Shown here: piece by piece, positions 3,325 through 48,325 of the stretch
Layout of the letters: each line of letters begins with the position of its first letter
How positions within the stretch are numbered: the stretch's first letter is position 1
Source of the DNA: Escherichia coli
Lineage (GTDB): Bacteria; Pseudomonadota; Gammaproteobacteria; Enterobacterales; Enterobacteriaceae
Reading direction: 5' to 3' (one strand)
Assembly (NCBI RefSeq): GCF_046105845.1
Contig: NZ_CP151004.1
DNA: 64,000 bases
Notes under the pieces: generated by a model
What the model was told of the DNA's origin: nothing
The model's database searches: none
The model's input: the letters and a program-made list of their open reading frames with translations, nothing else
Translations under genes and position numbers: made by a program

Positions 3325-3376
3325 CCGAATTTCGATTAACGCTCAGTCTCTGACTGAGAAAACTGGAAGCATGCTA

Positions 3377-42629: not shown

Positions 42630-46694
<4,065 letters not shown>

Positions 46695-46840
46695 TGTTAT
46701 CCCTCTGAAGTTCGTTTTTTACCATTTAGCCATAGTAAAAATATGAATTGTTTGATTTCGCGCATATTCGCTCATAATTCGAAAGTGAAACGTGATTCCA
46801 TGCGTCATTCTGAACATTTAACCCATCGTATTTAATAATG

Positions 46841-46856
46841 TGTGCGGTAATTCACA
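46841..46856. promoter_or_regulatory. CRP binding site in divergent glpACB / glpTQ control region
   Basis: TGTGCGGTAATTCACA matches CRP consensus TGTGA-N6-TCACA with one mismatch. Confidence 0.6.
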
Positions 46857-46966
46857 TTTAATTTATGAATGTTTTCTTAACATCGCGGCAACTCAAGAAA
46901 CGGCAGGTTCTCCCACTGAATCAGGCTGTTAATCATAAATAAGACCACGGGCCACGGAGGCTTTCA

Positions 46967-48325
46967 ATGTTGAGTATTTTTAAACCAGCGCCACACAAAG
47001 CGCGCTTACCTGCCGCGGAGATCGATCCGACTTATCGTCGATTGCGTTGGCAAATTTTCCTGGGGATATTCTTTGGTTATGCTGCTTACTATTTGGTTCG
47101 TAAGAACTTTGCCCTCGCTATGCCTTATCTGGTCGAGCAGGGCTTCTCACGCGGTGATTTAGGTTTTGCCCTTTCGGGGATCTCGATCGCTTATGGATTT
47201 TCGAAATTCATCATGGGCTCGGTGTCGGATCGCTCGAATCCGCGCGTTTTCCTGCCCGCAGGTTTGATTCTGGCGGCGGCAGTGATGTTGTTTATGGGCT
47301 TTGTGCCGTGGGCGACGTCGAGCATCGCGGTGATGTTTGTACTGTTGTTCCTCTGCGGTTGGTTCCAGGGGATGGGGTGGCCGCCGTGTGGTCGTACTAT
47401 GGTGCACTGGTGGTCGCAGAAAGAACGTGGCGGCATTGTGTCAGTGTGGAACTGTGCACACAACGTCGGTGGTGGTATTCCGCCGCTGCTGTTCCTGCTG
47501 GGGATGGCCTGGTTCAATGACTGGCACGCGGCGCTCTATATGCCCGCTTTCTGCGCCATTCTGGTGGCACTGTTCGCCTTTGCGATGATGCGCGATACCC
47601 CGCAATCTTGTGGCCTGCCGCCGATCGAAGAGTACAAAAATGATTATCCGGACGACTATAACGAAAAAGCGGAACAGGAGCTGACGGCGAAGCAAATCTT
47701 CATGCAGTACGTGCTGCCGAACAAATTGCTGTGGTACATCGCTATCGCCAACGTGTTCGTTTATCTGCTGCGTTACGGCATCCTCGACTGGTCACCGACT
47801 TATCTGAAAGAGGTGAAACACTTCGCGCTGGATAAATCCTCCTGGGCCTACTTCTTCTATGAGTATGCGGGCATTCCGGGCACCCTGCTGTGCGGCTGGA
47901 TGTCGGATAAAGTCTTCCGTGGCAACCGTGGGGCCACCGGCGTCTTCTTTATGACACTGGTGACCATCGCGACTATCGTTTACTGGATGAACCCGGCAGG
48001 TAACCCAACCGTAGATATGATTTGTATGATTGTTATCGGCTTCCTGATCTACGGCCCTGTGATGCTGATCGGTCTGCATGCGCTGGAACTGGCACCGAAA
48101 AAAGCGGCAGGTACGGCAGCGGGCTTTACCGGGCTGTTTGGTTACCTGGGCGGTTCGGTGGCGGCGAGCGCGATTGTTGGCTACACAGTGGACTTCTTCG
48201 GCTGGGATGGCGGCTTTATGGTAATGATTGGCGGCAGCATTCTGGCGGTTATCTTGTTGATTGTTGTGATGATTGGCGAAAAACGTCGCCATCAGGAATT
48301 ACTGCAAAAACGCAACGGAGGCTAA
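46967..48325 (+). CDS. glpT: Glycerol-3-phosphate:phosphate antiporter (MFS)
   Basis: 452 aa, 12 TM. Confidence 0.95.

Follow-up and report, generated by a model that had tools for sequence, protein, structure and literature searches.

The glpTQ-glpACB control region of Escherichia coli: a CRP site and an array of GlpR operators on the published K-12 map

The spacer analysed here separates the divergent genes glpA and glpT within a 64,000-nucleotide stretch of Escherichia coli DNA (hereafter the window; Table 1). Both genes are recognized by NCBIfam equivalog models, as are glpB and glpC, which come after glpA, and glpQ, which comes after glpT. A 461-bp query centred on the spacer matches 5,419 of 5,426 complete E. 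coli genomes, and every one of these matches sits between annotated glpA and glpT in the RefSeq annotation. Aligned with K-12 MG1655, the spacer is 98% identical and free of indels; the C at 46810 and the AACCC at 46820-24 make up a natural allele that is also carried by E. coli 042. NCBIfam models, RefSeq annotation and the K-12 alignment therefore agree with the original prediction that this is the glpACB-glpTQ divergent control region. The locus is the E. coli glpTQ-glpACB control region, and its biology is already known. A search for Rfam families within the spacer found none. The sole Rfam match above gathering score in the window is a nuoG RNA cis-regulatory element at 3327-3369 (50.3 bits), which indicates that the window also holds part of the nuo operon.

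The K-12 control region was reportedly mapped by Larson, Cantwell and van Loo-Bhattacharya in 1992 and by Yang, Gerhardt and Larson in 1997, and the title of the 1992 paper is said to imply distant GlpR operators. The spacer is among the most densely mapped in E. coli and is of little value for discovery. RegulonDB 8.5 assigns 21 sites to glpTQ, distributed over five factors (PMC4280137). Four GlpR operators have been described in the spacer, together with a repression loop and with induction by CRP of only one of the two operons (PMC2946308); GlpR is released by glycerol-3-phosphate (PMC4790336, PMC7567609).

Table 1 Features of the glpA-glpT spacer and its flanking genes. The glpA start and the four operators are placed through GlpR coordinates relayed in one sentence of PMC3050690; operator names give positions relative to that start, and GlpR scores are matches out of 20.
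Feature	Coordinates	Strand	Remarks
glpA	45066-46694	-	NCBIfam equivalog model
Spacer	46695-46966		272 bp, between divergent glpA (-) and glpT (+)
GlpR operator +33..+52	46707-46726	.	GAAGTTCGTTTTTTACCATT; glpA leader; 14/20
Invariant block	46724-46734	-	ATTTAGCCATA (glpA strand TATGGCTAAAT); candidate extended -10
GlpR operator -8..+12	46747-46766	.	ATTGTTTGATTTCGCGCATA; over start 46758, overlaps FNR-like site
FNR-like site	46752-46765	.	TTGAT-TTCG-CGCAT; centre 46758.5
Mapped glpA start (+1)	46758	-	placed from the anchored published coordinates
Likely glpA -10	46764-46769	-	GAATAT; predicted
GlpR operator -28..-9	46767-46786	.	TTCGCTCATAATTCGAAAGT; contains ATAATTCGAAAG; over glpA -10 region
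GlpR operator -60..-41	46799-46818	.	CATGCGTCATTCTGAACATT; 12/20 here, 13/20 in K-12
Stretch equivalent to published CRP-cAMP footprint	46836-46858		
CRP-cAMP site	46841-46856	.	TGTGC-GGTAAT-TCACA; centre 46848.5; 9/10 core, 15/22 full consensus
glpT -10 hexamer	46878-46883	+	TAACAT; conserved as TA(A/C)nAT; predicted assignment
IHF-like core	46919-46931	+	AATCAGGCTGTTA; glpT leader; pattern match to WATCAANNNNTTR with one relaxed position
glpT Shine-Dalgarno	46956-46960	+	GGAGG; inside conserved GCCACGGAGGCT, 7 nt before ATG, kept in nearly all taxa
glpT	46967-48325	+	NCBIfam equivalog model

Three strings had been singled out in the spacer, and all three are found where they were placed: TGTGCGGTAATTCACA (46841-46856), called a near-consensus CRP site, and ATGCGTCATTCTGAACATT (46800-18) and ATAATTCGAAAG (46774-85), both likened to degenerate GlpR operator half-sites. 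The CRP call is well founded, resting on the core, on conserved half-sites and on a near-identical published CRP-cAMP footprint (PMC5352689); the wording "near-consensus" suits the core, with nine of ten positions matched, and is slightly generous for the full site, which matches only 15 of 22. Core matches to TGTGA-N6-TCACA at the 9/10 level are seen three times in 64 kb where 1.65 are expected, and the chance expectation of such a match is about 0.007 per 272-bp spacer. Measured against the 22-bp consensus, the site is the joint best in the window, and the lac site scores the same by this count. Conservation was followed in an alignment of 27 Enterobacteriaceae spacers (that of the window and those of 26 other taxa), gathered with GlpT as query. 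Mean identity in this alignment is 0.92 and 0.91 in the two CRP half-sites, 0.64 in the 6-bp spacer between them and 0.45 in the flanks. Position by position across the 26 other taxa, conservation amounts to 85-100% in the half-sites and 38-81% in their spacer, and in 23 of these taxa the aligned core is still at least 8/10.

Direct binding data come from EHEC, where a CRP-cAMP DNase I footprint lies on AATGTGTGCGGCAATTCACATT (-30..-52 of glpT) and overlaps the -35 position, and where crp and cyaA mutants show no detectable activity of the glpT promoter (PMC5352689). The corresponding sequence here differs from AATGTGTGCGGCAATTCACATT by a single base of the CRP spacer, T in place of the C shared by EHEC and K-12; in the consensus this position makes no contact. 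In K-12, glpA/glpT was also recovered by CRP SELEX-chip (PMC3105977). The predicted glpT -10 hexamer has a mean identity of 0.88, against 0.45 in its flanks, in the 27-taxon alignment. The glpT start would fall at 46888 by the numbering of PMC5352689 and at 46890 by the usual 7-nt gap after TAACAT; the CRP site is accordingly centred at about -39.5 for the former and -41.5 for the latter, and at -90.5 of glpA. Judged from this geometry, with the exact start a predicted one, the CRP arrangement at glpT is of class II. A generic sigma-70 scan of the spacer gave one weak, unconserved match, a rate no higher than that of shuffled sequences.

The stretch from the CRP site to the glpT -10 (46857-46877) exists as two very different alleles within Escherichia: TTAATTTATGAATGTTTTC in K-12 and in the window, and TCATGAAATGAATGATTAA in E. 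coli SCPM-O-B-8794, E. whittamii and E. albertii. Both are of equal length and leave the flanking elements intact.

The consensus used here for operators of GlpR, a DeoR-family regulator, is the 20-bp dyad WATGTTCGWTAWCGAACATW and reportedly goes back to Zhao et al. 1994; all GlpR scores are match counts out of 20. As a control, it scores the K-12 glpD operator at 20/20 and its tandem neighbour at 14/20, and it picks out a tandem array at glpFK too. It also agrees with the RegulonDB-derived consensus ATGTTCGTTATTGATCATTT in the Reg-Seq supplement (PMC7567609). Against this consensus the two GlpR-like strings reach 12/20 (46799-818) and 11/20 (46774-93), and 20-mers of at least 12/20 occur at a mean of 2.9 per spacer in 5000 dinucleotide-preserving shuffles. 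On a half-site PWM trained only on the K-12 glpD and glpFK operators, both strings stay below 4 bits. Neither string on its own therefore exceeds chance expectation. Enrichment does show over the full spacer, where three 20-mers reach 14 or more (P=0.0006, 5000 shuffles): 46747-66 at 15/20, and 46707-26 and the CRP site at 14/20 each. The PWM half-site matches at 46707, 46747, 46757 and 46767 stand in exact 10-bp register. GlpR-like 20-mers of 13-14/20 are also present inside the glpA/glpT coding sequence, at 46301-46320, 45179-45198 and 47196-47215.

The presence of the CRP site in this trio is itself instructive. Read as the 20-mer 46839-46858, a true CRP site reaches 14/20 against the GlpR dyad, which in turn holds six of the ten positions of a CRP core. 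The two motif models thus cross-react, so that weak sites are not assignable to one factor by score alone.

Position in the published K-12 map provides a separate approach. The GlpR sites of glpACB are given there as -60..-41, -28..-9, -8..+12 and +33..+52, coordinates from Larson et al. 1992 that are available here second-hand, from one sentence in PMC3050690. The four operator starts (0/+40/+60/+92) were slid as a template along the whole 64-kb window and the consensus scores summed. The sum shows a single maximum of 51 at 46707, for a window mean of 23.6 (s.d. 4.2); the next best placement, at 43, is a self-shift of the same array. This unique fit puts the glpA +1 at 46758, provided that the relayed coordinates are accurate, and as a cross-check the +33..+52 operator falls inside the 64-nt glpA leader, as that sentence of PMC3050690 says. 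In K-12 numbering the array would correspond to 2352615-34 (46707-26), 2352575-94 (46747-66), 2352555-74 (46767-86) and 2352523-42 (46799-818), with the glpA +1 at 2352583. On the map so anchored, the first string, ATGCGTCATTCTGAACATT, is the -60..-41 operator, and the second, ATAATTCGAAAG, lies inside the -28..-9 operator. The comparison with the mapped K-12 operators thus upholds both calls, the relayed spacing fitting one position in the window and covering both strings. The original prediction had the CRP site and two of the GlpR operators; it had missed the operators at 46747-66 and 46707-26 as well as the FNR-like and IHF sites. A search for the operator sequences in published full texts returned only unrelated matches or a PCR primer, and the supplements of PMC4280137, Reg-Seq, Myers 2013, Federowicz 2014 and Kim 2012 contained no glpA/glpT site coordinates or 5' ends.

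The two operators that had been missed are stronger and better conserved than the two strings. That at -8..+12 is one of only four 20-mers in 64 kb to score as high as 15/20; its aligned counterparts score 14-17/20 in 24 of the 26 other taxa, the last two falling below 13/20, and its mean column identity is 0.88. The +33..+52 operator has a left half worth 7.0 bits on the half-site PWM and is kept at 13-16/20 in 20 of the 26, or in 21 when one match shifted by 2 bp is included. With starts at 46707, 46747 and 46767 (0, 40 and 60), three of the operators stand in register over the glp promoter. As a dyad, the -28..-9 operator reaches no more than 10/20; the half-site PWM gives 6.9 bits for its left part, TATGAGCGAA (46767-76, minus strand). 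The neighbouring register 46774-93 reaches at least 13/20 in two of the 26 other taxa. At -60..-41, the C at 46810 in place of the T of K-12 lowers the match from 13 to 12/20, and at least 13/20 is reached at the aligned position in nine of the 26. Short motifs within these two operators are shared widely: CGAAA (46780-84) is kept in nearly all taxa and TGCG (46801-04) in many, and CGAAAGTG recurs at glpD, where it forms the right half of the tandem operator.

The operators 46799-818 and 46767-86 are thus weak ones, meaningful only within a cooperative array. Their PWM scores lie at background, a result that would refute both strings if taken alone and would wrongly reject two mapped operators. 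This is a methodological caution: no motif model lifts two operators reported as footprinted above background, and true sites would have been lost to a PWM threshold; it was the anchored multi-site template, built on the relayed K-12 coordinates and combined with phylogenetic footprinting, that resolved them.

The -8..+12 operator shares its position with the FNR-like site, which matches TTGAT-N4-ATCAA at 7/10, a level met 330 times in the window. The core rises to 9/10 at the same position in Cedecea, Buttiauxella, Yersinia, Serratia, Dickeya, Pectobacterium and Providencia. An FNR(D154A) footprint of about 70 bp includes this FNR-like sequence, there named -123..-136 of glpT (PMC5352689); it ends 32 bp upstream of the CRP site and maps here to approximately 46734-46803. 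FNR ChIP shows no peak at the spacer in the wild type, and a peak only in an hns stpA mutant. On the anchored map the site sits on the glpA +1, an odd place for an activator of glpA. Nearby lies the most conserved element of the spacer across the 27 Enterobacteriaceae, an invariant block of the form ATTTAGCCA(C/T)A, in which nine of 11 columns have an identity of 0.9 or more and the other two, 46733 and 46734, have less. Yersinia and Serratia have the block too, and its distance from the start of the TGTTTGAT site (46747) is constant at 23 bp; it corresponds to +25..+35 of the mapped glpA leader, mostly outside the published operators as relayed. Read on the glpA strand (TGGCTAAAT), it is placed where a class II extended -10 would be for an FNR-like centre at 46758.5. 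This geometry of FNR-like site and block is conserved outside the Enterobacteriaceae, whereas the -10 of the mapped promoter is not.

Such an arrangement allows a different reading, in which 46747-66 would primarily be an FNR site driving a second glpA promoter with a start near 46717 and with the block as its extended -10. In that case, the operators 46747-66 and 46707-26 would exert repression through competition with FNR and occupation of this second start. It would account for an operator at +33..+52, and the FNR(D154A) footprint (PMC5352689) spans the stretch concerned. A TG followed by nnnAAT stands exactly 29.5 bp downstream of the FNR-like centre in nearly all of the seven genera with the 9/10 core, and two of these genera have a canonical -10 at the corresponding place, TATATT in Providencia and CACTAT in Dickeya. 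However, the hexamer here, CTAAAT, has another base in place of the near-invariant -11 A, the K-12 start as relayed is 46758, and the supplements of Myers 2013, Federowicz 2014 and Kim 2012 offer no supporting 5' ends. The central TCG and the preceding TGT, needed by GlpR and not by FNR, are kept in the 27 Enterobacteriaceae taxa, although the TCG is lost in more distant Enterobacterales. The wild-type FNR ChIP result also argues against it. We therefore hold a second FNR-dependent glpA promoter, acting besides that at 46758 and ancestral to Enterobacterales, to be a tentative proposal with the balance of the evidence somewhat against it, and likewise the view of 46747-66 as primarily an FNR site. 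As the mapped start itself, a position of about 46717 (the FNR-like site being taken as -41.5) is ruled out: the relayed operator map fits only +1 = 46758, and the +33..+52 operator must lie in the 5' UTR. The position survives only as that of a possible second promoter.

The preferred reading of the two original strings, as GlpR operators, has two further competitors. The better of these sees in ATGCGTCATTCTGAACAT, wholly or in addition, a weak second CRP site (TGCGT-CATTCT-GAACA, centre 46808.5) 40 bp upstream of the main one. Several CRP sites have been stated for the spacer (PMC4790336, PMC3105977), the GlpR consensus and the CRP core resemble each other to the extent described above, and both sites have a copy of the 8-bp sequence ACATTTAA at their right edge, the two standing 40 bp apart. 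Yet the core matches at only 6/10, under the cut-off of at least 7/10 applied in the conservation scan, the EHEC CRP footprint is a single protected region (PMC5352689), and the published -60..-41 GlpR operator, as relayed, coincides base for base with the string; we consider a second CRP site improbable. That both strings are a chance resemblance in AT-rich DNA and have no function is very improbable indeed: their consensus and PWM scores are at the shuffled-spacer level and below 4 bits, and they vary within E. coli (C or T at 46810, and TACG for TTCG in SCPM-O-B-8794), but on a map anchored by two strong sites their positions are exactly those of two of the four published footprints, and the conserved CGAAA and TGCG and the recurrence of CGAAAGTG at glpD point the same way. 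The repeat ACATTTAA itself is an exact 8-bp direct repeat, its copies at 46814-46821 and 46854-46861 lying at the right edges of the -60..-41 operator and of the CRP site.

Overlapping the -60..-41 operator is a further sequence, CGTGA-TTCCAT-GCGTC (46791-46806), centred at -40.5 of the mapped glpA start. Its CRP core matches at 5/10 in E. coli and at 7-8/10 in nine other taxa (TGTGA-N6-GCTCA or GCGCA); it may be a candidate class II activator site for glpA.

On the glpT side, IHF sites have been reported at +15..+51 and +193..+227 of glpT (Yang et al. 1997, as relayed in PMC3050690). The first corresponds to 46902-46940 here and contains the IHF-like core. The RNA structure of the glpT leader was not significant (z = -0.67).

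Based on the above data, we are confident that the spacer is the glpTQ-glpACB control region working as described for K-12. The proposed mechanism uses a single CRP-cAMP dimer, which would overlap the glpT -35 position, be needed for glpT transcription in a class II manner and at the same time stand at -90.5 of glpA. When glycerol-3-phosphate is absent, GlpR would occupy all four operators, an array that would cover the glpA start, its -10, its upstream activator position and its leader. The -8..+12 and -28..-9 operators would occlude the start and the predicted -10, and the -60..-41 operator would cover the upstream activator position. With operators over its start, -10 and leader, glpA would be blocked directly; the glpT promoter has no operator of its own and would hence be repressed at a distance from the array, probably by looping aided by IHF in the glpT leader. 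An anaerobic input could be provided by FNR, which would bind the same stretch as the operators. Should the second glpA promoter exist, the -8..+12 operator would compete with FNR and the +33..+52 operator would cover the start of that promoter. In this model, the present analysis supplies the K-12 identity, the motif matches, their conservation and the single position at which the published operator map fits, and protein binding, CRP dependence, looping and IHF come from the cited papers; the exact starts and -10 hexamers are our own placements, and the allele itself is known from sequence alone.

The closest comparison is K-12 itself, with the same locus, the same gene order and a 272-bp spacer that is 98% identical without indels. 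No base differs between the two in the CRP half-sites, both -10 regions, the FNR-like site, the IHF core or three of the four GlpR operators. The differences lie at eight places (46742, 46798, 46810, 46820-24, 46828, 46848, 46913 and 46963); among these, 46810 is in the -60..-41 operator, 46848 is in the CRP spacer, and 46820-24 reads AACCC here and TGTAA in K-12. The EHEC glpT promoter (Kurabayashi et al. 2017, PMC5352689) carries both the AATGTGTGCGGCAATTCACATT footprint, with its one-base difference, and TTGAT-TTCG-CGCAT, at the same spacing from the ATG. The K-12 glpD and glpFK promoters have the same family of 20-bp dyads, arranged head to tail in 20-bp steps over the promoter. However, glpD has a perfect 20/20 operator, whereas the best here is 15/20 and two stand at 10-12/20. 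With operators weaker than the perfect one of glpD, repression here must lean more on cooperativity and looping.

GlpT is an entry route for fosfomycin, and susceptibility is set by how CRP and FNR control glpT (PMC5352689). A slight shift in repression could result from natural alleles of the spacer, 46810C and the 46820-24 patch among them.

Two minor features remain. The glpA leader contains a tiny upstream frame, AUG GCU AAA UGG UAA (MAKW; 46719-46733, minus strand), of which the nucleotides are conserved and the frame is not: a conserved small ORF was not found in the spacer, this frame being specific to E. coli and absent in Citrobacter and beyond. Between the -60..-41 operator and the CRP site, the aligned positions 46819-46837 read TGTCATA-N4-TGTAACA in Citrobacter, Klebsiella, Enterobacter, Raoultella and others, a sequence whose reverse complement resembles an ArcA-type direct repeat. 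This stretch has diverged in Escherichia and is polymorphic in E. coli, with AACCC in the window and 042 and TGTAA in K-12.
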